From a phage, in sequence record PZ445527.1: a stretch of DNA of 64,000 nucleotides. One strand, 5' to 3'. The position numbers and the translations under genes were made by a program. The stretch's first letter is position 1, and the number at the start of each line of letters is the position of its first letter. Shown here piece by piece: positions 5,840-32,416 of the stretch. Below the pieces are notes generated by a model. The model made no database searches, was not told the DNA's origin, and saw nothing but the letters and a program-made list of their open reading frames with translations.

Positions 5840-6030
5840 TTCCGTTTTTAAATGCGAATCATTATCATTCGTATTCCACTATCTAACCGATAATCATTCC
5901 ACTTTTTAAATGAGAATCGTTTCACTTCTTGAATAGTTCTCATTCCCTTTCTTAAATGCGAATAATTATCATTCGCATTTCACTTTTTAAATGAGATTGA
6001 TTCTCATTATCATTCGCATTCAGGCGAGCA
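5840..6030. repeat. cluster of degenerate repeats (ttttaaatgMgaat / tcattatcattcg units)
   Basis: Direct reading: at least 4 copies of ttttaaatg[c/a]gaat and 3 of (t)cattatcattcg. Confidence 0.65.
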
Positions 6031-6050
6031 GGGCAATTGCCCTGCGCTTT

Positions 6051-6653
6051 TGTGCAAATCCGACATCTGCTCCAAGGGTTACGTGCTGGCGTGTATGTGC
6101 AAATCCGACAATTTTTGGTAGTGTGCAAATCCGACCCGAAAAATTTTTATAGTGTGCAAATCCGACGACGAATCTGTCTCCCAAAAACTCCAGCAATCAC
6201 GAACTGCGTTCGAATCCTGTGGGATATGTGCAAATCCGACATGGTTTTTCTAGGATTAAGATGTGCGAATCCGACAAGATTTTTGTGACTTCGATTGAAG
6301 GGTGTGTGATTGTGTGGGTTTGAGGAGAAGATGAGAGAGCGAGAGAAATTTTGGGACTAGAAGGATGTGGGCGCAGGATTGGTGCGGAGCACCTGATTTG
6401 CGGGGATTTTGGGGAAGATGTGGGATAATTTGGGAAGATTTGAGATAGGTGCAGAAAAAGTGAAATTTTATTAGCAAAATGGGGCAAAATAGCTTGACAA
6501 GTGAAAATTTCTGTGGCTCTAAAAACTCAGGCAATCATGGGCCTTCGGCCCGAAATAATGCTGCTATTTTCAGGAGAGTAGGAGTTCCTAAAAACTTAGG
6601 CGTTTGTGCAAATCCTACCATAAATTTCTAGAATATCAATGTGCAAATCCGAC
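6051..6653 (+). repeat. iteron-like array: 8 dispersed direct copies of TGTGCAAATCCGAC (6051, 6106, 6122, 6153, 6227, 6263 variant, 6605 variant, 6640)
   Basis: Six exact 14-mers plus two 1-mismatch variants, all same orientation, in non-coding DNA. Confidence 0.85.
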
Positions 6654-12598: not shown

Positions 12599-13030
12599 TT
12601 ACCAATCGTTAACAACACCAGAGAACTCAGAAGCAAAAACTTTCTCAAATTTTTCTGCAATTTCAGGATGATCCTTACAGATCAACTCAATACATGCTTC
12701 TGGAGTCATTCCTTCGTCTTCAGGATCACCATAATACTTGTCCCAAAGATCGTCAGGGATGATGTGCTCTGCCAAATCTTGGAAAGAGATTAGCTGATAA
12801 CGTTCTGCTTCCTCAGGGATAAGGATTTCACAAAGATCTTTATCTATATCACTACGGTAATCAGCAATTAGCAGGGCATTGCAAGCATGACACTCCCAAA
12901 CCATCAAGCGTTCAGAAATAGAATTAGACTTATCCTGAATGTAGGACTGAAACAGGGTTCGAAAAGTAGCTTTAACTTGTTCAAACTTATCTGCTGCTGC
13001 AAAAACTAGAGCTTTATCAACTTTGTTCAT
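12599..13030 (-). CDS. hypothetical acidic protein 143 aa
   Basis: ORF track. Confidence 0.55.
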   Translation of the reverse strand: MNKVDKALVFAAADKFEQVKATFRTLFQSYIQDKSNSISERLMVWECHACNALLIADYRSDIDKDLCEILIPEEAERYQLISFQDLAEHIIPDDLWDKYYGDPEDEGMTPEACIELICKDHPEIAEKFEKVFASEFSGVVNDW

Positions 13031-24529: not shown

Positions 24530-24603
24530 TGGTAGTTAGTAGTGGAATCGAACCAGGTTCCACGGTTTACAAGACCGTTGCATCGCCAGCAATGCTTTAA
24601 GAG
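24530..24603 (-). ncRNA. tRNA-like remnant: anticodon arm with UGU (Thr-like) plus imperfect T-arm, no matching 5' acceptor strand
   Basis: acggt-cttgtaa-accgt arm with U33/A37, then GGTTCGATTCC-like loop and CCA; acceptor pairing not found. Confidence 0.3.
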
Positions 24604-24996
24604 CTATCGTTGTCTTGTTGAAACTCTATTTCTGGCCCTATGCGTAGAGGTCATAGAGTGGCAGTTAGGGCAGAGAATCTTTAGATTTTCTGGAGAACAG
24701 TTAGTTGCATCTCCATCTATATGATCTACCTCAGTTAAAACTGCTCCGTCAATTGGATGTTTCCCATCCCAACCACATACTTCACAAGCAGTACCACGAG
24801 TATCCCACAGCCACTTCCTAACAAAAGGTTTTAATTGTGCAGCTTTACCAGTATAACCAGGTTCTTCACCTGCCAGCCACTTTAATACTTTTTGCTTTGT
24901 CTGGTACTCCTGCTGACAAGCAGGACCACAATACTTACCTGCGGAACCTCTACTTTTAGGTTTTGTGATTCCGCAATTTAAACAAGTAAACTCCAT
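24604..24996 (-). CDS. HNH endonuclease 130 aa
   Basis: HNH core (HIDGD...N...NL..LCPNCH) with zinc-finger cysteines. Confidence 0.75.
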   Translation of the reverse strand: MEFTCLNCGITKPKSRGSAGKYCGPACQQEYQTKQKVLKWLAGEEPGYTGKAAQLKPFVRKWLWDTRGTACEVCGWDGKHPIDGAVLTEVDHIDGDATNCSPENLKILCPNCHSMTSTHRARNRVSTRQR

Positions 24997-25398: not shown

Positions 25399-25474
25399 TG
25401 GAGCGGCTAGAGGGAATCGAACCCTACTCAGCGAGGCTTGGAAGGCCTGCGACACAACCCGTGTGCTTAACCGC
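25399..25474 (-). tRNA. tRNA-Gly (anticodon UCC)
   Basis: Hand fold: 7-bp acceptor (one G-U), T-loop GGTTCGATTCC, anticodon loop CTTCCAA, encoded CCA. Confidence 0.55.
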
Positions 25475-25482
25475 TTATTGTT

Positions 25483-25560
25483 TGGCAGGGGATATTGGAT
25501 TTGAACCAATGATCTCGACTTCAAAGGCCGTTGTGCTAACCGTTACACTACTCTCCAATT
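25483..25560 (-). ncRNA. tRNA-like 3' fragment (canonical T-arm + acceptor 3' strand + CCA) without a pairing 5' acceptor strand
   Basis: ATTGG-TTCAAAT-CCAAT T-arm followed by atcccct-g-CCA; no complementary 5' strand within 100 nt. Confidence 0.3.
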
Positions 25561-25648
25561 GTTTGGCTGGAGTGCCTGATTCAATCCCAGGCACCTTCGG
25601 AGTCAGAGGCCGACGACTTGACAATTGATCTACACCTCAAGAATACTA

Positions 25649-25885
25649 TTAACTAGATGCTGGTTCTGCTGGCTGAGATACAGCAGGCTGTTCTAATGTA
25701 TCTGGTGCTGATACAGAGAAAAGAGCTTGTAATGCTGCAATATCACGCTCGTAAGTTTCAATACGAGTAGTAAGAGTATCTACCATCTGTTTATGATAGG
25801 CTAAGTTATTCTGAGATTCATCTCGAAGGGTTTGCAGTTCTGCAAGACGTGTTAACATAATTTCACTAATTAAAGCATTACTCAT
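25649..25885 (-). CDS. hypothetical coiled-coil protein 78 aa
   Basis: ORF track. Confidence 0.5.
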   Translation of the reverse strand: MSNALISEIMLTRLAELQTLRDESQNNLAYHKQMVDTLTTRIETYERDIAALQALFSVSAPDTLEQPAVSQPAEPASS

Positions 25886-26075
25886 TTGTTTCTCCTAAAT
25901 TTTCCGGTTCTTCTAAACGTTTGCCTTCATGATCTACTCGAATAACTCCGCATCCTTCGCAAATCACAACTGCACCATAACCTTCTTTGACTTCAGCTTC
26001 TGTAATCAAACCAGAAAGATCACCAGTATCTCTGCCCCACATATCAATGGAGCATTGTTTGCAGAAATCAGCCAT
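25878..26075 (-). CDS. small Cys-containing protein 65 aa
   Basis: ORF track; CKQC...CEGC. Confidence 0.45.
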   Translation of the reverse strand: MADFCKQCSIDMWGRDTGDLSGLITEAEVKEGYGAVVICEGCGVIRVDHEGKRLEEPENLGETNE

Positions 26076-26100
26076 ATTTTATTTCCTATTTAAGTTAATT

Positions 26101-26177
26101 TGGGGTGGCTAGTGGAACTCGAATCCACATAGGCCTGATTCACAATCAGGATCATTAACCAATTATGATATAGCCAC
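26101..26177 (-). tRNA. tRNA-His (anticodon GUG)
   Basis: Perfect 7-bp acceptor, D-stem TCAT/ATGA, anticodon stem CCTGA/TCAGG with loop TTGTGAA, T-arm GTGGA-TTCGAGT-TCCAC, encoded CCA. Confidence 0.75.
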
Positions 26178-26543
26178 AATTGAAAACTCGCAGGGTTAGC
26201 GAAACCATCCTCAATTAGCATGTTCTAGAATACTAATCAAGTTATCTCCTATTGCACGCAGCTCAAGACGAGTACGAATTTTCAATTGTGGCGGCTCTCA
26301 GAAACTCTTCTATTCTAGCCTCAGAAGCTTACCCCCGAACGCATGTCGGGAAAGTCTTTCCAAGCGCATCAAATAGCACCGTTACACTTTGAGCCATTGA
26401 TGTATCAAGGAATAGAAGGACTTGAACCTTCATGAGTTAGACCATTTAACTCAACCGCTTTTTAGGGTATATTTCTAGGAGTGGATGTTCCTAGTAAACC
26501 TATTCGGCAGTCCCGTCTACCAATTCCGGCATATTCCAAGATT

Positions 26544-26638
26544 TGGAGGTAGGTAAGGGGATCGAACCATTACACCGTATCACTACGGTCAACCGATTTC
26601 AAGTCGGAGTCCATCGCCAGCCGTTGGATTGACCTACC
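26544..26638 (-). tRNA. tRNA-Ser (anticodon UGA), type II
   Basis: 7-bp perfect acceptor, anticodon loop CTTGAAA, long variable arm (ACCGTA/TACGGT), T-loop TTCGATC, CCA. Confidence 0.7.
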
Positions 26639-26650
26639 TTATAAATTGTT

Positions 26651-26735
26651 TGGTGGGTTAGGAGAGACTCGAACTCTCACGCACTTAAGCAAGGGCTTCT
26701 AAGACCCTCGTGGCTACCAATTACACCACTAACCC
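26651..26735 (-). tRNA. tRNA-Leu (anticodon UAG), type II
   Basis: 7-bp perfect acceptor, anticodon loop CTTAGAA, long variable arm, T-arm GAGAG-TTCGAGT-CTCTC, CCA. Confidence 0.7.
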
Positions 26736-26741
26736 CTAATT

Positions 26742-26816
26742 TGGTGGACAGTAGGAGAGTCGAACTCCTCACTCCTGAGTGCAAGTCAGGTATTTTCCCA
26801 GATAAACTAACCGCCC
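26742..26816 (-). tRNA. tRNA-Ala (anticodon UGC)
   Basis: Acceptor GGGCGGT with G3:U70 wobble (Ala identity element), anticodon stem CCTGA/TCAGG loop CTTGCAC, T-arm AGGAG-TTCGACT-CTCCT, CCA. Confidence 0.7.
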
Positions 26817-27055
26817 AAATTCTTTAATTTACTAAGGCTATTAGCTCGGCGTAACTACAGCACCTTCGCTTCAAGCGGAAGGAACCGCGTCATCTCGCAA
26901 ACCCAATACACTATTCAGTTGCCGCTGAATCTAGTGGACTAATCTAGAACTTCTCCCGAGTCGTAGGGATCGTGCTTTTTGGCAGCCAGTCCTAGGTCGA
27001 GCTAATACCTTAGTGAATTATGATGAGGATTTCTCCCATATCAATTTATATAAAT

Positions 27056-27084
27056 ATTATAACAAGAAATTAATCATCAAGCAA
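27056..27084 (-). promoter_or_regulatory. sigma70 promoter (TTGCTT-17-TATAAT) driving the tRNA block 26101-26816
   Basis: Minus strand consensus upstream of untranslated spacer and tRNAs. Confidence 0.65.
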
Positions 27085-27158
27085 TTGAGTTTTTCTTGAA
27101 ATTGGTAGCGGGTTCCAGTACTGCCCTGGACTTACTTAGCTTATGAGACTAAGAAGAA
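27083..27158 (-). ncRNA. tRNA-like sequence with CAU anticodon, 1:72 mismatch and non-canonical T-loop
   Basis: Acceptor 6/7 bp with CCA, anticodon loop CTCATAA; T-loop GGCAGTA lacks the T-psi-C pattern. Confidence 0.3.
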
Positions 27159-27165
27159 CTCTATG

Positions 27166-27260
27166 CCTTCCACCCGCAATTGTTTGGTTATTCTAGACAG
27201 GATTCGAACCTGTTATCACTTGTGCGGACTTACGAGAACCATTCTTTCACTCGAATCGAA
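27166..27260 (-). ncRNA. region with two T-loop-like motifs (GGTTCGAATCC and CGTTCGATTCG) that does not fold into a canonical tRNA
   Basis: Hand folding failed to find anticodon arm/acceptor pairing. Confidence 0.25.
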
Positions 27261-27431
27261 CGAGCTTCTGCCCTAGCCAAGCTGGTTTCCCCATCAACCA
27301 CGCTAGAATGTTTGATTGTTTTCAGTGCAAGAGTCCGAGTCTTGGACACGACCGTTTCGCAAGTACATAGGCAGCTTATCATGAGTCAGCACTTCCGAAT
27401 TGCTAGCCCCGTGTTCTGCACTGAAATTTTA

Positions 27432-27779
27432 TTAGTTTAACCGTAAAGTATTATCTAATTCACCATTAATTGTTCGGCATTCCTCTGGAATTGCTGGTGT
27501 GGCCTTGTATTCCCACCACTCAGCACCATCATATTCCCCACGTTCTAGCCAAGTTCCGTCGGCAAACCATACATTACCATAAAGTAATTGTCCACCGTAT
27601 CCAGAATCATACTCAAAGTCTAGGTTATCAAGAAAATCCTCAATATCTTCTTCTGTATAGCCTAAAGGTAATACCCAAACTTTTTTATCCCCATAATACC
27701 CGAATTCTATTTTAATACACTTAATTTTAGAATTGGTATTTTTTAAGGCAAGTAACAACTCTTCTTTAGCATTACGCAT
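27432..27779 (-). CDS. hypothetical protein 115 aa
   Basis: ORF track. Confidence 0.55.
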   Translation of the reverse strand: MRNAKEELLLALKNTNSKIKCIKIEFGYYGDKKVWVLPLGYTEEDIEDFLDNLDFEYDSGYGGQLLYGNVWFADGTWLERGEYDGAEWWEYKATPAIPEECRTINGELDNTLRLN

Positions 27780-27804
27780 AGTATATTCTCATACTGAATT
27801 AATT

Positions 27805-27881
27805 TGGCGCGACTGATGGGATTTGAACCCACATTCCCTCCCGTGATAGGGGAGTACCATTACCAAGCCAGCCACGGTCGC
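27805..27881 (-). tRNA. tRNA with unusual anticodon loop CTATCAC (anticodon AUC if folded conventionally)
   Basis: Acceptor 6/7 bp + CCA, T-arm GTGGG-TTCAAAT-CCCAT, anticodon stem CTCCC/GGGAG; A34 is atypical. Confidence 0.5.
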
Positions 27882-27890
27882 ATAATTTAT

Positions 27891-28076
27891 TTACTCAGCT
27901 TTGAGTTTTTCAATAGCTGCATTAAGTTCTTTAAGAAACTCTTTTCGTACATTAAGACGATTGAGACTTACTAGTATATCATGTTTAAGTTCTTCGATGT
28001 ATTTCTTCTCAACTTCAATATTGTTGATAGTGCTATCACGATGAACTTCTAGCTGCGCAATCACATTCTTGGACAT
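27891..28076 (-). CDS. hypothetical coiled-coil protein 61 aa
   Basis: ORF track. Confidence 0.4.
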   Translation of the reverse strand: MSKNVIAQLEVHRDSTINNIEVEKKYIEELKHDILVSLNRLNVRKEFLKELNAAIEKLKAE

Positions 28077-28178
28077 GCTTGTTTCCTCAGTTATTAATGA
28101 AAATGGTATCTGTGGCTGAATTAGATGTCAGCAATGATAGCTGGTTGGCTACCGGTTTACTTAACTCTACACAGAATT

Positions 28179-28260
28179 TGGCGGGCCGTGTAGGATTCGA
28201 ACCTACGTTGTCTTTCGACACGGATTAACAATCCGCCGCCAAACCGCTTGGCTAACGACC
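28179..28260 (-). tRNA. type II (long variable arm) tRNA with anticodon GUU
   Basis: 7-bp acceptor (one G-U), D-stem GCCA/TGGC, anticodon arm GCGGA-TTGTTAA-TCCGT, extra arm GTC-GAAA-GAC, T-arm GTAGG-TTCGAAT-CCTAC, CCA. Confidence 0.55.
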
Positions 28261-28416
28261 CTAAAAAATTTATATTGCTGACTAGGGTTTTCACCTAGAC
28301 GGAGTTAGCACCGTAGCGTGTAGCGGCATACCTCTCCAAACCGTGCCTCATCTTTCAATTACGGAGACAGTGTTCCTACGCGTGCCTGAATTGATTTAAC
28401 AATTCTTTCAGCAAAT

Positions 28417-28492
28417 TGGACGACCGCATGAGGATTGAACTCACATAAAAAGGATTTGCAATCCTTCGCCTAAGCCATTCAGCCAACGGTCG
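28417..28492 (-). tRNA. tRNA-Cys (anticodon GCA)
   Basis: 7-bp acceptor, anticodon stem AAGGA/TCCTT loop TTGCAAA, T-loop TTCAATC, CCA; 5' end overlaps stop of ORF 28479..28670. Confidence 0.65.
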
Positions 28493-28670
28493 ATTTATCT
28501 TGTTTTTCGAGATCTTCAAACTCTAAATCATTGAAGTTCCCTAGAGTACGGGTATAGAACCCATCCCCTGCGTCATAGCCTGATTTACCACAATCACACA
28601 TTTTAAATTCGCGCAGGTGTGTGAAAACATGTTCAGAACCACAACACTTAAATCTAACTAATCGTTTCAT
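28479..28670 (-). CDS. small zinc-finger-like protein 63 aa
   Basis: ORF track; CC...CDCGKSG. Confidence 0.4.
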   Translation of the reverse strand: MKRLVRFKCCGSEHVFTHLREFKMCDCGKSGYDAGDGFYTRTLGNFNDLEFEDLEKQDKSTVG

Positions 28671-28698
28671 TAGCTTCTCCAGTTCAATTTATGTAATT

Positions 28699-28727
28699 AT
28701 TATATAGAACTTTTGGGAACTAAGCAA
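28699..28727 (-). promoter_or_regulatory. sigma70 promoter (TTGCTT-17-TATAAT)
   Basis: Minus strand consensus. Confidence 0.65.
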
Positions 28728-29009
28728 CTACATTTTTTAAGAATTTGATGCCTTTCTTTTTCTTCTTATATTTCCACGTTAATGGATTCTGTCGATTATG
28801 AACGCTTGAGATCTTTGTCTCGTCAAAGTTCTTCAATATCATGTAATCACAAGATAATTGTTCTAGTGGAATGTGATCACCGTCAAAAGCGTATACATAA
28901 GGCTGTTGACTAGCACGATAATGATAGACTTTGTTAATTCTACGTTTCAGCGACTTATCCGCGCAGTAAATAAAGAAGTTTTAAGGGTGCATCAGCATCT
29001 CCTTCAATT

Positions 29010-29093
29010 TGGTGCATCGTGCTGGATTTGAACCACCAACCCCGAAGGGCACGGATTTACAGACCGCTGCAATAGCCATTCTGCCAACGATGC
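29010..29093 (-). tRNA. tRNA-Tyr (anticodon GUA), type II
   Basis: Perfect 7-bp acceptor, anticodon loop CTGTAAA, long variable arm (CCC-TTCG-GGG), T-loop TTCAAAT, CCA. Confidence 0.7.
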
Positions 29094-29221
29094 ACATTTA
29101 AAAGTATTCAAATACTAGTTTAAACACTTTTAAATATGTTTCCAAATTAGATAACTATTATACCAAGTTTTAAGGCACTGAGCAAGTCAGATTTTGAAGA
29201 ACTTGCTCAGTGCTGTATTAG

Positions 29222-29506
29222 TTAGTCGAACTTAGGAGTGACAGATAAGGAGAACGGAAGTTCAAAAACTTCTTCACCCTCATTACTAACGGTAACTACA
29301 CGACCTTTAAGTTCAGACATTAAAATATCAATATCAGCTTTTGCATCTGGAGCCATGCCAGCTTCAATACATTTAGCTTTAACTTCCGGTAAAAGCTCTA
29401 CGTTATAGAGATAGAGCCACTCAATCTCACCTTCCCAGTCTTCCCAGTCTTCCCAGGATTTGCAGATTGCACTTTCAATACCAGTTGCTACAACACGATT
29501 TTGCAT
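29222..29506 (-). CDS. hypothetical acidic protein 94 aa
   Basis: ORF track. Confidence 0.5.
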   Translation of the reverse strand: MQNRVVATGIESAICKSWEDWEDWEGEIEWLYLYNVELLPEVKAKCIEAGMAPDAKADIDILMSELKGRVVTVSNEGEEVFELPFSLSVTPKFD

Positions 29507-29596
29507 TCGTTAACTCCTTCATCAATTTATATAACTATTATACCAGAAATTTAAAGCAAAAGGCAAGTACATTTTTAAAAATTCTGTTTGGAGGAG

Positions 29597-29803
29597 CTAA
29601 ACTCCAGATTCTTCTGCCAAGTCTAGACTAATAAGAGTTATAGCCATAATTGCTGCACCGTGTTCTTTTTCTCCGGTGTTTTTAGCAGAGTCTATAATAT
29701 CCTTAATCTGTTCGTAATAACTTTTTACTTCTTGTTCAATGCCTGCCTCGGCTATCATGCCTTTAGTCATGAGTCGTTGCATGGTAATTTCAGTATTAGC
29801 CAT
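29597..29803 (-). CDS. hypothetical protein 68 aa
   Basis: ORF track; GGAG SD. Confidence 0.5.
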   Translation of the reverse strand: MANTEITMQRLMTKGMIAEAGIEQEVKSYYEQIKDIIDSAKNTGEKEHGAAIMAITLISLDLAEESGV

Positions 29804-29963
29804 GTTGTTTCTCCAGTTTCATTTTTAATAGTTTACAAATGAAATCAACGTCTTCATCCGTGCCTAGATCTCTATCTTCAAGGGTTGCCTTGAAATTTTT
29901 TGTTAGTTCCATAAGAATAACTTCCCTGGAACGACGTGTTGGCGGGGGTGGATGTCTATACAT
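29796..29963 (-). CDS. small proline-rich protein (55 aa)
   Basis: ATG with AAGGA SD, MYRHPPPPTRR...; below ORF track cut-off; overlaps next start by 8 nt. Confidence 0.4.
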   Translation of the reverse strand: MYRHPPPPTRRSREVILMELTKNFKATLEDRDLGTDEDVDFICKLLKMKLEKQHG

Positions 29964-29978
29964 CTTATTTCCTTAATT

Positions 29979-30053
29979 TGGTGGGTCGGAGGAGAATCTA
30001 ACTCCTACTCGTTAGCTTATGAGGCCACCGCTTTAACTTTAAGCTACCGACCC
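29979..30053 (-). tRNA. tRNA with CAU anticodon (Met or Ile-lysidine type) and atypical T-loop TTAGATT
   Basis: Perfect 7-bp acceptor GGGTCGG/CCGACCC, CCA, anticodon loop CTCATAA, T-stem AGGAG/CTCCT. Confidence 0.55.
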
Positions 30054-30059
30054 TATGTT

Positions 30060-30148
30060 TGGCGGAAGAAGTGGGAATCGAACCCACAAGGCTATATTTC
30101 AAACCGACAGATTAGCAATCTGCTGCAATACCGTTATGCTATTCTTCC
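30060..30148 (-). tRNA. tRNA-Ser (anticodon GCU), type II
   Basis: Perfect acceptor GGAAGAA/TTCTTCC, anticodon arm GCAGA-TTGCTAA-TCTGT, long variable arm, T-arm GTGGG-TTCGATT-CCCAC, CCA. Confidence 0.7.
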
Positions 30149-30162
30149 GAATTTATAAATAT

Positions 30163-30191
30163 ATTATATTAGAAATTTAGCTTCATAGCAA
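30163..30191 (-). promoter_or_regulatory. sigma70 promoter (TTGCTA-17-TATAAT) overlapping the 3' end of the upstream gene
   Basis: Minus strand consensus; would drive tRNAs 30148-29979. Confidence 0.6.
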
Positions 30192-30687
30192 GAAAATTTT
30201 TCAAGTTTTCGGTAGACATCTCATCCACATCTACAGGAGAAACAAATCCATTTAATTGTCTAGCAAATTTTTTACCAGCAGGATCATTATCCCCAACAGC
30301 TACCAATTTAAAAGGTAGTAATTTCAATTGCTTTAATAGCGCTTTTCCTGGAGAAGAACCCAACATTGCCAAGGCTGGATAACCAGCGTTATGTAACGCA
30401 ACTGCCTTAAATACAGATTCAGCAATCAATACCACTTTTTCATCTCCATTGAGAGTTTCTAGTCCCCATACACACTGTGTAGTAGAATAAGTAAAATATC
30501 TAGCTTCAAAGGGGCACTTACCATGACCTTTTGGAGCAGAAGGATTATAAGTCTGATAGCCTCTCAACATCCCAGAGAAGTCATACAATGGGACTGTTAG
30601 CCATCCTTCCGGGCTTAACCAGCAATGATATTTATCTGTATCAAACCCTCTAGATAAGAGATGTTCTGTTAGTTCATCAACAGTCAT
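30169..30687 (-). CDS. Toprim-domain protein 172 aa
   Basis: Conserved Glu (LIAESVF) and DxD (VGDNDPAGKK) spaced as in Toprim folds. Confidence 0.5.
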   Translation of the reverse strand: MTVDELTEHLLSRGFDTDKYHCWLSPEGWLTVPLYDFSGMLRGYQTYNPSAPKGHGKCPFEARYFTYSTTQCVWGLETLNGDEKVVLIAESVFKAVALHNAGYPALAMLGSSPGKALLKQLKLLPFKLVAVGDNDPAGKKFARQLNGFVSPVDVDEMSTENLKNFLAMKLNF

Positions 30688-30724
30688 ATTTGATCCCCTA
30701 GTTAGTTGTATAAATACATTATAC

Positions 30725-30758
30725 AGAAAAGCCCTGCGCTCTCCAGTGAACGCAGGGC
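30725..30758 (-). terminator. rho-independent terminator (gccctgcg...cgcagggc + U-tract)
   Basis: 8-bp GC stem followed by UUUU on minus strand, downstream of 30784..31731. Confidence 0.65.
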
Positions 30759-30783
30759 TTACTTCGAATATTACGTGTGGGTA

Positions 30784-31731
30784 TTACTTGTTACGCATAT
30801 CCATAATCATTTGGCCATCGTAACCAGTGCCAACCACAGTCTGCGGTACACCACCTTGATACTTCTGAGCACGAATCATTTCAACTTCTAGTTGCTTCCA
30901 GCGAATCATCTCAGGAGTAATGGTACGTTGCAGAGCGGCGTTAGCTTCAGCTTCTTTCTTAGCTGCGTACAGTTTAGCATCTGCATCACGTTCGTTTGCA
31001 ATAGCTTGGTTGTTACGAGCTTCACGATCTGCTTCTGCTTGTTTAACCTTCTGCTGTGCTTCTTGTTCAACACGAGCCAACTCAGCTTTCGCAGCATTAA
31101 CTTGTTCTTCACGAACTTTGGTATTCTGTACCTGTTCCATGATTACAGGCGGCAAAGTAATATCCTGAAGGAACACTTGCTTAACTGTGTAACCATAAGG
31201 GCGTGCATACTCTTCAACTTCCTGTTGAATTGCAGTTTGCAATTGAGCCTGAATTTTAGCATCAAACAAATCTTGTGCTTTAGGTACAGACTTACCAAAC
31301 TCACGAATAGTAGACAGTAATTTTTCAGTTACATACTTGTCTAGTGCCTGATCCTGAGTACCTGCATTAATACGGTTAATCGGTGCCTTAGAACCATCAA
31401 ACTGCAACATAACAGTCAGGTCAACAGTGGATTTAAACTTATCCTGACTAGGAACCTGAAGTTTATCTAATTTTACAGCAATATCTTTTGTACTGAAAGT
31501 ATCGAAAGATGCAAACGGGTTTACAATATGGAAACCAGGTAATACTGGATTAGGGTCTACTTTACCAAGAAATGTTTGGGTTTTAACCGTACCATCAGAA
31601 ACAATAGTATATGAATTAAAAGCTAGGATTAAACCTGCTAAACCAACTACAGCACCAATACCCCAACGTTTAATAGTACGGATTACTTTCTGCTCAGAAG
31701 TCAGTTCTTTCATATTTTTAGTAGCAAACAT
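30784..31731 (-). CDS. SPFH/band-7 (prohibitin/HflK-like) membrane protein 315 aa
   Basis: N-terminal TM helix, SPFH-like core, long Ala/Glu/Gln-rich coiled-coil C-terminus. Confidence 0.6.
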   Translation of the reverse strand: MFATKNMKELTSEQKVIRTIKRWGIGAVVGLAGLILAFNSYTIVSDGTVKTQTFLGKVDPNPVLPGFHIVNPFASFDTFSTKDIAVKLDKLQVPSQDKFKSTVDLTVMLQFDGSKAPINRINAGTQDQALDKYVTEKLLSTIREFGKSVPKAQDLFDAKIQAQLQTAIQQEVEEYARPYGYTVKQVFLQDITLPPVIMEQVQNTKVREEQVNAAKAELARVEQEAQQKVKQAEADREARNNQAIANERDADAKLYAAKKEAEANAALQRTITPEMIRWKQLEVEMIRAQKYQGGVPQTVVGTGYDGQMIMDMRNK

Positions 31732-31765
31732 ATATTTCCTTTGTTTTAGTTACAGTTAATAAAAT

Positions 31766-31839
31766 TGGCCGAGGTGACAGGATTCGAACCTGCATAAAGG
31801 AATTTAGAAGACTCCTGCCTCTCCCTTAGACTACACCCC
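31766..31839 (-). tRNA. tRNA-Arg (anticodon UCU)
   Basis: Acceptor 7 bp (one G-U), anticodon loop CTTCTAA, T-loop TTCGAAT, CCA. Confidence 0.6.
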
Positions 31840-32343
31840 GTTTAAGTATTTTTAAGAACTCTCGTAAAAACTCTTAAAAATACAGACGATACCGGGAGAG
31901 TCATAAGTCTCACTCATTAAGTATTTCAAGACAAAATACAGTAACGTCTATTATTTTCCAGTTTAAGTCAGGGTGACTTAGTGGTTATGTCCTGCGGTAT
32001 ATTGAGGACTCGGTTAGGCTTGGGGTCATGACTTCCCGCCTTTTGCTGCTACTCAACAGGAGTTATCGCGAATTACCTGTGCTATTGTGCACCATTAGTG
32101 ACATCTCTCATGCCAGCATTTCCCACTTTGTGGATAGCTTGAAAAACTACTCCGATACGGAGAAAGAACTTCACTATCCTAGAATACCTTCTAAAGTTCT
32201 TCTTTAGCCTGGACATAGTTAAATCGTAATAAAACTATTCAGCAGACCGGTTGGTTAGTCTGGAACCAACTACCGCGTGGTTTAGGCAGTGCGCAACTAA
32301 CCTCGGAAGCTTTTACGTTAAAAGCACCAGTTATCCAGTTCTT

Positions 32344-32416
32344 ACCGACCGTAGGATTCGAACCTACATCTTCCACCAGTTACGGCTTGATAATACCAAT
32401 TATACTAGGACGGCAG
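32344..32416 (-). ncRNA. tRNA-like sequence (canonical T-arm GTAGG-TTCGAAT-CCTAC, no CCA, anticodon arm not resolved)
   Basis: Hand fold incomplete. Confidence 0.35.

Follow-up and report, generated by a model that had tools for sequence, protein, structure and literature searches.

Can a tRNA that carries the long variable arm of a serine, leucine or tyrosine tRNA be an asparagine tRNA, and if so, why would it keep such an arm? The question is raised by a gene in a 64,000-nucleotide stretch of phage DNA (sequence record PZ445527.1; hereafter the window), whose anticodon reads GUU and whose variable region folds into a hairpin. The original prediction, made from the sequence alone, had left two readings standing: a Tyr-like tRNA with a mutated anticodon that could misincorporate at Asn codons, or an unusual phage tRNA-Asn. 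Our results indicate that the locus is a real tRNA-Asn gene of a T5-like phage, carrying an extra hairpin, and that it belongs to a numerous group of tRNA-Asn genes with a coherent structure and a strong enrichment in phages. We consider it probable that it is a working tRNA, charged with asparagine, whose arm is kept by selection, and escape from host tRNA nucleases is the leading explanation of what the arm might do.

ARAGORN called a tRNA-Asn(gtt) of 83 nucleotides on the minus strand at 28179..28261, and the Rfam model RF00005 matched 28182..28261 with 58.4 bits (E 7.5e-11; gathering score 29) over its full length (model positions 1-71 of 71), ten nucleotides being inserted in the variable region. 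Folded without constraints, the RNA takes the form of a cloverleaf to which a fourth hairpin, GUC-GAAA-GAC, is added (minimum energy -33.9 kcal/mol, z -3.1). The well-formed tRNA with an encoded CCA and a 13-nucleotide extra arm that had been predicted by hand folding is thus confirmed. A covariance model might have assigned a different anticodon arm; RF00005 placed the same one, GCGGA-UUGUUAA-UCCGU, and ARAGORN read the same GUU. The predicted location was also right, but the interval 28179..28260 stopped one base short of the 5' end (G at 28261, the partner of C72), and the minus strand was not stated. The features of the gene are as follows.

28179..28261, minus strand: whole gene, tRNA-Asn(GUU), 83 nucleotides, CCA encoded (ARAGORN, Rfam RF00005, minimum-energy fold)
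28255..28261, minus strand: 5' strand of the acceptor stem, GGGUCGU (G1-C72, G2-C71, G3-C70, U4-G69 and so on; from the sequence)
28238..28252, minus strand: D-arm, GCCA-AGCGGUU-UGGC, with C16 present and nucleotide 17 absent (from the sequence)
28220..28236, minus strand: anticodon arm, GCGGA-UUGUUAA-UCCGU (Rfam alignment and alignment A1, described below)
28227..28229, minus strand: anticodon GUU, reading AAC and AAU (ARAGORN, anticodon position 33; the plus strand reads AAC)
28207..28219, minus strand: variable region, stem-loop GUC-GAAA-GAC followed by AAC (minimum-energy fold)
28190..28206, minus strand: T-arm, GUAGG-UUCGAAU-CCUAC (Rfam alignment)
28183..28189, minus strand: 3' strand of the acceptor stem, ACGGCCC (from the sequence)
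28182, minus strand: discriminator G73 (from the sequence)
28179..28181, minus strand: encoded CCA (from the sequence)

Written in full, the RNA is GGGUCGU-UA-GCCAAGCGGUUUGGC-G-GCGGA-UUGUUAA-UCCGU-GUCGAAAGACAAC-GUAGG-UUCGAAU-CCUAC-ACGGCCC-G-CCA. It has the canonical features of an elongator tRNA, namely a 7-base-pair (bp) acceptor stem, a 5-bp anticodon stem with a 7-nucleotide loop containing U33, a 5-bp T stem with the loop UUCGAAU and a 3' CCA, in a 7/5 acceptor/T-stem geometry according to the alignment. Its variable region, GUCGAAAGACAAC, is 13 nucleotides long (stem GUC/GAC, loop GAAA, then AAC) and has what defines a class II-type region, a length above about 10 nucleotides and a stem-loop, here of 3 bp and a tetraloop, instead of the 4-5-nucleotide loop of the class I architecture of bacterial tRNA-Asn. 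The anticodon and matching discriminator of a Leu, Ser or Tyr tRNA (A73 for Leu and Tyr) are absent, and GUU and G73 stand in their place. According to ARAGORN, the minus strand has 12 tRNA genes from 25483 to 31840, and the separate canonical tRNA-Tyr(GUA) that had been noted at 29010..29093 is one of them.

The gene itself is already known, as it has been annotated and was handled experimentally two decades ago. The 241 bases around it match 441 phage records (the best 97.9% identical), almost all belonging to T5-like phages of Salmonella, Escherichia, Shigella and Klebsiella, and most of the matches listed fall on a feature annotated as tRNA-Asn; Salmonella phages GEC_vB_N3, VSe12 and HMD-P4 have an annotated tRNA-Asn with exactly the same 83 nucleotides (100% identity). 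A sensitive blastn search with these 83 nucleotides reached 638 phage records, beyond T5-like phages too, and blastn found the long-arm allele at at least 95% identity in about 270 records. A tRNA-Asn(gtt) of 83-87 nucleotides was called by ARAGORN in Proteus phage PM135 (Novosibvirus), Providencia phage PR1 (Priunavirus), Salmonella phage SB9 (Epseptimavirus), the Marfavirus phages Potts1 and VAC36, the Phapecoctavirus phages KKP 3954 and UP17, the phiKZ-like phages phiHQ and U5, and Klebsiella phage Roth67 (a 168-kb record without taxonomy, which we take to be T4-like). What appears to be new is the class II-type arm on this tRNA-Asn and the existence of a widespread phage class of such tRNAs: we could not find mention of an extra-arm tRNA-Asn or of its distribution in the full-text literature searched, a scope that did not take in the older T5 papers of the Ksenzenko laboratory.

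With which amino acid is this tRNA charged? Asparagine identity in Escherichia coli consists of the three anticodon bases and the discriminator G73, a set that is sufficient to transfer Asn identity (PMC9976931). The window tRNA has both elements of a substrate of asparaginyl-tRNA synthetase (AsnRS), the anticodon G34 U35 U36 and the discriminator G73. Because these elements, which the E. coli enzyme uses, are retained, charging with asparagine by the host AsnRS is most likely, and the tRNA would then read AAC and AAU during infection. The hand-curated record of Salmonella phage 5 (GenBank AJ604531) lists an 83-nucleotide 'tRNAN' with AAC as the codon recognized, and an anticodon swap to CUA turns it into an amber suppressor. 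Because the CUA version suppresses, the body of tRNAN is evidently expressed, processed and usable by the ribosome, and some enzyme must charge the long-arm body without GUU. On its identity elements, we regard the identity question as settled in favour of a bona fide tRNA-Asn, the second of the two readings that had been offered. A plain tRNA-supply argument also applies, since the phage uses Asn codons heavily: they make up about 53 per 1000 codons in the long open reading frames (ORFs) of the window, which has 38.9% G+C, and AAU is commoner than AAC.

The first of the two readings, a tRNA-Tyr paralogue whose anticodon changed from GUA to GUU and which is still charged with tyrosine and misreads Asn codons, now seems hardly credible. 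The Tyr-sized variable arm, and G34 and U35, which are common to tRNA-Tyr, would fit it. However, A73 and U35 are critical for tyrosine identity, and both tyrosyl- (TyrRS) and leucyl-tRNA synthetase (LeuRS) have G73 among their listed antideterminants (PMC9976931). In the family, G73 is essentially invariant. Nor do the aligned relatives read GUA: the anticodon is GUU in 12 of 12 aligned phage tRNAs (11 relatives and that of the window). The label 'Tyr-like' is apt for the architecture, with its 13-nucleotide region and 3-bp stem, and misleading for charging. Paralogy with the phage's own tRNA-Tyr gained no support, as there was no identity outlier among the tRNAs compared: global identity was 58-66% to the 11 other tRNAs of the window and to the E. 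coli Asn and Tyr tRNAs, and the 64% to the phage's tRNA-Tyr is unremarkable, no closer than to its other tRNAs. Sequence similarity carries no signal of the gene's descent, from a Tyr tRNA or otherwise. Recent capture from the host was also rejected, as sensitive blastn against 5,426 E. coli genomes gave only 29-nucleotide T-arm matches with E about 2.

A different kind of miscoding would follow if the tRNA were charged by a synthetase that ignores the anticodon, with Ser or Gln inserted at Asn codons. Seryl-tRNA synthetase (SerRS) might recognize it through the arm, G73, G1-C72 and G2-C71, and glutaminyl-tRNA synthetase (GlnRS) through G73, G2-C71, G3-C70 and G10. Indeed, G73, G1-C72, G2-C71, C11-G24 and the arm overlap the Ser identity set of E. 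coli, and the CUA form of the long-arm allele is a suppressor, whereas that of the class I allele of phage T5 is not, according to a note in its record (NC_005859). Serine identity has the size of the extra arm as its main determinant, aided by G73, G1-C72 and G2-C71 (PMC9976931), but the arm here has only 3 bp, as in tRNA-Tyr. About two thirds of the family have U1-A72, in contrast to the G1-C72 that is conserved in tRNA-Ser. Against SerRS it also counts that tRNA-Tyr is reportedly rejected by this enzyme. In either case the complete AsnRS identity set would compete, and hundreds of phages conserve the gene although replacement of Asn throughout the proteome should do harm. Suppression by the CUA form is itself an expected artefact of the new anticodon, as CUA variants of E. 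coli tRNA-Asn are known to become Gln acceptors (PMC9976931). Taken together, we deem such mischarging very unlikely.

If the tRNA is an ordinary tRNA-Asn in its charging, is its arm more than an accident? Alignment A1 contains 13 sequences, namely the window tRNA, 11 phage relatives and the E. coli tRNA-Asn, and among its phage tRNAs GUU, G73 and CCA are invariant. Overall, 99% of the cells are paired and 18 of the 24 pairs vary on both sides. Changes on both sides occur in 7 of 7 pairs of the acceptor stem and in 4 of 4 pairs of the arm helix, 95.7% of whose cells are paired, compared with only 34-48% in slid controls. The compensatory arm stems are GUC/GAC, GUUC/GAAC, GUUC/GGAC, AUCC/GGAU, GUCA/UGAC and GGC/GCC. 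A covariance model built from this alignment (E at most 1e-9) gave 221 hits that included many other tRNAs, and the resulting mixed alignment (A2) was not used. Variable arms were instead parsed in two sets of unique long-arm sequences (n=95 and n=87), in which G73 is found in 95/95 and 77/87 and U1-A72 in 67/95 and 51/87. A hairpin of at least 3 bp is formed by 81% of the 95 sequences (24% of shuffles) and by 83% of the 87 (30% of shuffles), and the 84 simple hairpins of the larger set comprise 38 distinct stem sequences. The size range of the stem is narrow (3-4 bp), 0-1 nucleotide is usually left unpaired 5' of the stem and 3-4 nucleotides 3' of it, and the loop is a GNRA tetraloop, mostly GAAA, in 64/95 and 49/87 arms; UUCG and UUAG loops are also seen. 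Many of these relatives have class II-like D-arms, such as UACCCGAGUUGGUAGCAGGG and UGGCGGAAUGGUAGACGCA. The pattern of compensatory change argues that the arm is maintained by selection.

The distribution of the long form was examined by pattern scans. With an exact pattern that admits the long form only (the Asn anticodon arm CGGAYTGTTAATCCG, a gap of 13-26 nucleotides and then GGTTCRA), at least 120 stretches were found in the viral contigs of IMG/VR, versus 31 in one genome per species for 185,579 bacterial and archaeal species. Several of the 31 were false, each consisting of two adjacent short genes, and 19 were real, 11 of these in loci with at least 4 tRNA genes. When the gap was opened to 5-30 nucleotides, 17 of 120 viral stretches proved to be long, versus 4 of 129 metagenome matches. 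A scan independent of the stem (CTGTTAA, gap, GGTTCGAATCC) found about 8% of viral matches to be long, and its long-only version gave 87 further distinct long-arm sequences. About 180 distinct long-arm tRNA-Asn sequences are thus known from IMG/VR viral contigs, the long-arm share of phage tRNA-Asn genes being roughly 8-14%, and the phages in which a long-arm tRNA-Asn occurs include T5-like, Klebsiella T4-like, Marfavirus, Phapecoctavirus and phiKZ-like groups. In four of these cellular loci, on Verrucosispora and Micromonospora chromosomes, a long-arm tRNA-Asn of 89-90 nucleotides lies in an array of 23-36 tRNA genes within 8 kb; such arrays are similar to the 'tRNA array units' for which a role in anti-defence has been considered.

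It would be tempting to regard the arm as a tolerated leftover on a working tRNA-Asn, without a role of its own, for example from descent from a class II (Tyr) tRNA by a switch of anticodon and discriminator; the hairpin would then stay tidy simply because folding would suffer from an unstructured insertion. In size and layout the arm equals that of E. coli tRNA-Tyr, and many relatives have class II-like D-arms; both facts agree with this idea, as does the absence of an arm from about 86-92% of phage tRNA-Asn genes. The sporadic arms on other phage class I isotypes, described below, would likewise fit loose constraints and frequent isotype switching. However, a neutral insertion would be expected to decay or vanish, whereas here compensatory changes extend across unrelated phage families and about 180 distinct sequences, the preference for GNRA is strong and the size range narrow, and the arm is almost absent from cellular tRNA-Asn. 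We therefore consider the leftover explanation a serious but distinctly less probable one than selection on the arm.

Selection on the arm invites the question of what is selected, and a bacterial defence that cuts the tRNA-Asn of the host offers a candidate. The E. coli tRNA-Asn(GUU) is a secondary target of AriB, the nuclease of the PARIS system, which cuts it between positions 40 and 41 (Belukhina et al., PMC12409363). In an AlphaFold 3 model, one AriB monomer sits at positions 40-41 and the other on U16-U17 of the D-loop; a change of U16 to C impairs the cleavage of tRNA-Lys, and cells are rescued by the tRNA-Lys, tRNA-Thr and tRNA-Asn of T5 together (PMC12409363). The tRNA of the window is thus an isoacceptor of a cleaved host tRNA, as is expected of nuclease-resistant phage tRNAs. 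Substitutions at or beside the cleavage site, another mark of resistant phage tRNAs such as the T5 tRNA-Lys, are not seen in it, its U36-A-A-U-C|C41 being identical to that of the host, and it differs from the host tRNA-Asn in U32, in the D-loop and in an arm that starts right after position 43. Because the sequence of the cleavage site is that of the host, the arm, or the D-loop with its C16 for U16, would have to be the source of any resistance to AriB. The arm might reshape the face of the tRNA that is gripped by tRNases binding the anticodon stem and D-loop, such as AriB and the OLD nuclease, and it would leave charging, which depends on the anticodon and discriminator, untouched.

The alleles of the T5 family are suggestive in this respect. 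The tRNA-Asn of T5 itself (NC_005859, T5t17) occupies the same position as that of the window, between tRNA-Cys and RNA3 in the cluster, and is the same isoacceptor, but it has 78 nucleotides, an ordinary 5-nucleotide variable loop and a substituted anticodon stem (U36-A-A-G-U|U41). The T5 allele thus has a substituted stem and no arm, whereas the window allele has a host-like stem and the extra arm. Within the T5 family, to which this assessment is confined, positions 39-41 differ from the host in the class I alleles of both Asn and Thr (UAAGU|U and UAAGC|A), and long-arm alleles retain the host sequence (UAAUC|C for Asn, UAAUC|A for Thr), a complementary pattern.

Two phages of this family bear on the question more closely. 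Bas34 (SelmaRatti) has an annotated 77-nucleotide 'tRNA-Asn' (about 12599..12681 of locus L388) that is a deletion chimera, in which the 5' two thirds of a long-arm Asn gene, arm included, are joined to the 3' end of an fMet gene. Its 5' part is identical to the tRNA-Asn of the window save for one base in the D-loop, its 3' part, GGUUCGAUUCCUGCACCCGCU, nearly matches tRNA-fMet, and 3 of the 7 acceptor pairs are mismatched. The tRNA-Asn of Bas34 seems to be insufficient against PARIS (Belukhina et al., PMC12409363), which the chimeric structure may explain. Bas33 (HildyBeyeler) carries a long-arm Asn and also a long-arm Thr(UGU) tRNA, the latter of 87 nucleotides (L390, 12775..12861) with the variable region A-GGA-GUAA-UCC-CGUU and a class II-like D-arm; this Thr tRNA keeps the host-like AriB site UAAUC|A, whereas those of T5 and Bas32 are 75-nucleotide class I tRNAs with UAAGC|A. 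Bas33, which is without a tRNA-Lys(UUU), is rescued from PARIS by the T5 tRNA-Lys alone, whereas T7 needs Lys and Thr (PMC12409363), and the Bas33 tRNA-Thr is a strong counter-defence against the OLD tRNase (2026 preprint). An extra-arm tRNA of a class I isotype thus works in vivo and appears to withstand these nucleases.

Several points weigh against the reading of a working tRNA-Asn with a selected, protective arm. The first pair of the window tRNA is G1-C72, not the U1-A72 typical of bacterial tRNA-Asn. The latter pair is, to be sure, used by the amidotransferase route and not by AsnRS. Class II synthetases generally approach their tRNA from the side of the variable loop, so the arm could hinder AsnRS. 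The literature searched yielded no assay in which the long-arm Asn allele was aminoacylated or exposed to a nuclease. In addition, scans of viral contigs that do not constrain the stem recovered long-arm tRNA-Asn with very diverse anticodon stems. The published PARIS rescue used the T5 tRNA-Asn, a different and ordinary 78-nucleotide allele, and we dropped that paper as direct evidence for the window allele, the T5 tRNA being class I. Finally, the class I Thr tRNAs of T4, Bas32 and HK446 resist OLD equally well (2026 preprint); because they do so, the arm is not required for resistance to OLD.

One further role would make the arm a handle for a partner, either a phage or host enzyme that processes or modifies the polycistronic tRNA transcript or a tertiary contact of the GNRA loop. 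Such tetraloops are classic motifs for docking and for recognition by proteins, they dominate among the arms, and the gene lies in a dense cluster of tRNA and small-RNA genes with RNA3 directly downstream. This seems unlikely to us, as UUCG and UUAG loops are seen too, and T5-like, T4-like, phiKZ-like and Phapecoctavirus phages have no obvious accessory factor in common, none having been identified here. Escape from host nucleases stays the leading candidate for the role of the arm.

We speculate further that a GNRA-capped, Tyr-sized arm on class I isoacceptors (chiefly Asn, with Thr(UGU) and others as well) might be a general counter-defence of phages, although we rate so broad a claim as more doubtful than likely. 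In the same viral clusters, ARAGORN also called extra arms on Ile(UAU), Cys, Trp, Thr(UGU), His, Gly and Pro tRNAs, often with GNRA loops; those of Ile(UAU) have 91-96 nucleotides and make up 15 of 102 Ile calls. These isotypes are rarer than Asn in a sample that was selected on Asn, and some may be artefacts of ARAGORN.

Some neighbouring observations deserve mention. The T5-family locus of tRNA-Asn (positions 5953..6525 of the T5 locus, L386, compared with 28179..28416 of the window) has two alleles, one of 78 nucleotides with an overlapping homing-endonuclease ORF and one of 83-86 nucleotides with the long arm and without that ORF. In T5 the overlapping frame is T5.069, and related records annotate a GIY-YIG or T5orf172 nuclease there; the ordinary T5-type allele occurs in 134 records. 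The pattern looks like a polymorphism linked to a homing endonuclease, comparable to SegB in the tRNA region of T4. Directly after the CCA of the tRNA-Asn, at about 28104..28176 on the minus strand, lies RNA3, which the records of T5 and phage 5 call a 'tRNA-like RNA with unknown functions'; it ends in ...CACAGAUACCA, folds well (-19.7 kcal/mol, z -3.65) and is not called a tRNA by ARAGORN or Rfam. The tRNA-Asp of the window (27805..27881, minus strand) has the anticodon AUC, with A34, in the loop CUAUCAC; the curated record of phage 5 gives 'codon recognized: GAU' for its tRNA-Asp, and T5, Bas32 and Bas33 have the usual GUC. An A34 is unusual outside tRNA-Arg(ACG) and would remove the G34/Q34 recognised by nucleases of the colicin E5 type. 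The tRNA-Lys(UUU) of Bas32 (L391, 8302..8379) has the loop CCUUUAA, with C33 where U is almost universal, and its anticodon stem GCGGA/UCCGU is that of the tRNA-Asn. Four tRNA-like matches on the minus strand were found by Rfam and are absent from the ARAGORN calls (32343..32414, 25402..25475, 24534..24604 and 26407..26476); their scores are 35.5 bits (tRNA, above the gathering score), 24.5 and 22.2 bits (tRNA) and 30.9 bits (tRNA-Sec), and they may be degenerate tRNAs or the 'stable RNAs' of the T5 family.

A covarying arm on a complete Asn identity set breaks the rule that limits extra arms to Leu, Ser and Tyr tRNAs, and its spread over unrelated phage families together with its near-absence from cells points to a selective pressure specific to phages. 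If the arm blocks nucleases, it would be a second route of evasion beside substitutions in the anticodon loop and stem, and could help to predict which phages escape PARIS-like and OLD-like defences; were the device a general one, the shape of tRNA, and not only the sequence of its anticodon loop, would be contested between phages and bacterial immunity. Most T5-like phages carry the long-arm allele, so that results obtained with the 'T5 tRNA-Asn' cannot be applied to them. A scaffold that combines AsnRS identity with an arm may also interest tRNA engineers.

How does this tRNA compare with known ones? The E. coli tRNA-Asn, taken in a reference sequence matched at 100% identity in 5,425 genomes, shares with it the anticodon GUU, G73, the anticodon stem GCGGA/UCCGU, G26, the 7/5 architecture, the CCA and the whole of positions 36-43 (UAAUCCGU). 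It differs in its 5-nucleotide variable loop, compared with 13 nucleotides and a hairpin in the window, in U1-A72 for G1-C72, in C32 for U32 and in its D-loop, which is AGUCGGUA (U16 C17) where the window has AGCGGUU (C16 and no 17). The E. coli tRNA-Tyr has the same 13-nucleotide variable region, CGUCAUCGACUUC (C-GUC-AUC-GAC-UUC, sequence verified), with the same 3-bp stem GUC/GAC and three unpaired 3' nucleotides. Bacterial tRNA-Tyr(GUA) also has G1-C72, G34 and U35, but it has A36, A73 and, in the arm, the loop AUC where the window tRNA has U36, G73 and GAAA, and its similarity to the latter does not exceed the general background among tRNAs. The tRNA-Ser(GCU) of the same phage has an arm of about 17 nucleotides, longer than the 3-bp arm of its tRNA-Asn, which has the size of that of tRNA-Tyr. 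The allo-tRNAs (Mukai et al. 2017, PMC5389517) are different again, as they have 8/4 or 9/3 acceptor/T-stems and accept Ser or Ala, whereas the tRNA of the window combines the standard 7/5 geometry with the asparagine identity set.

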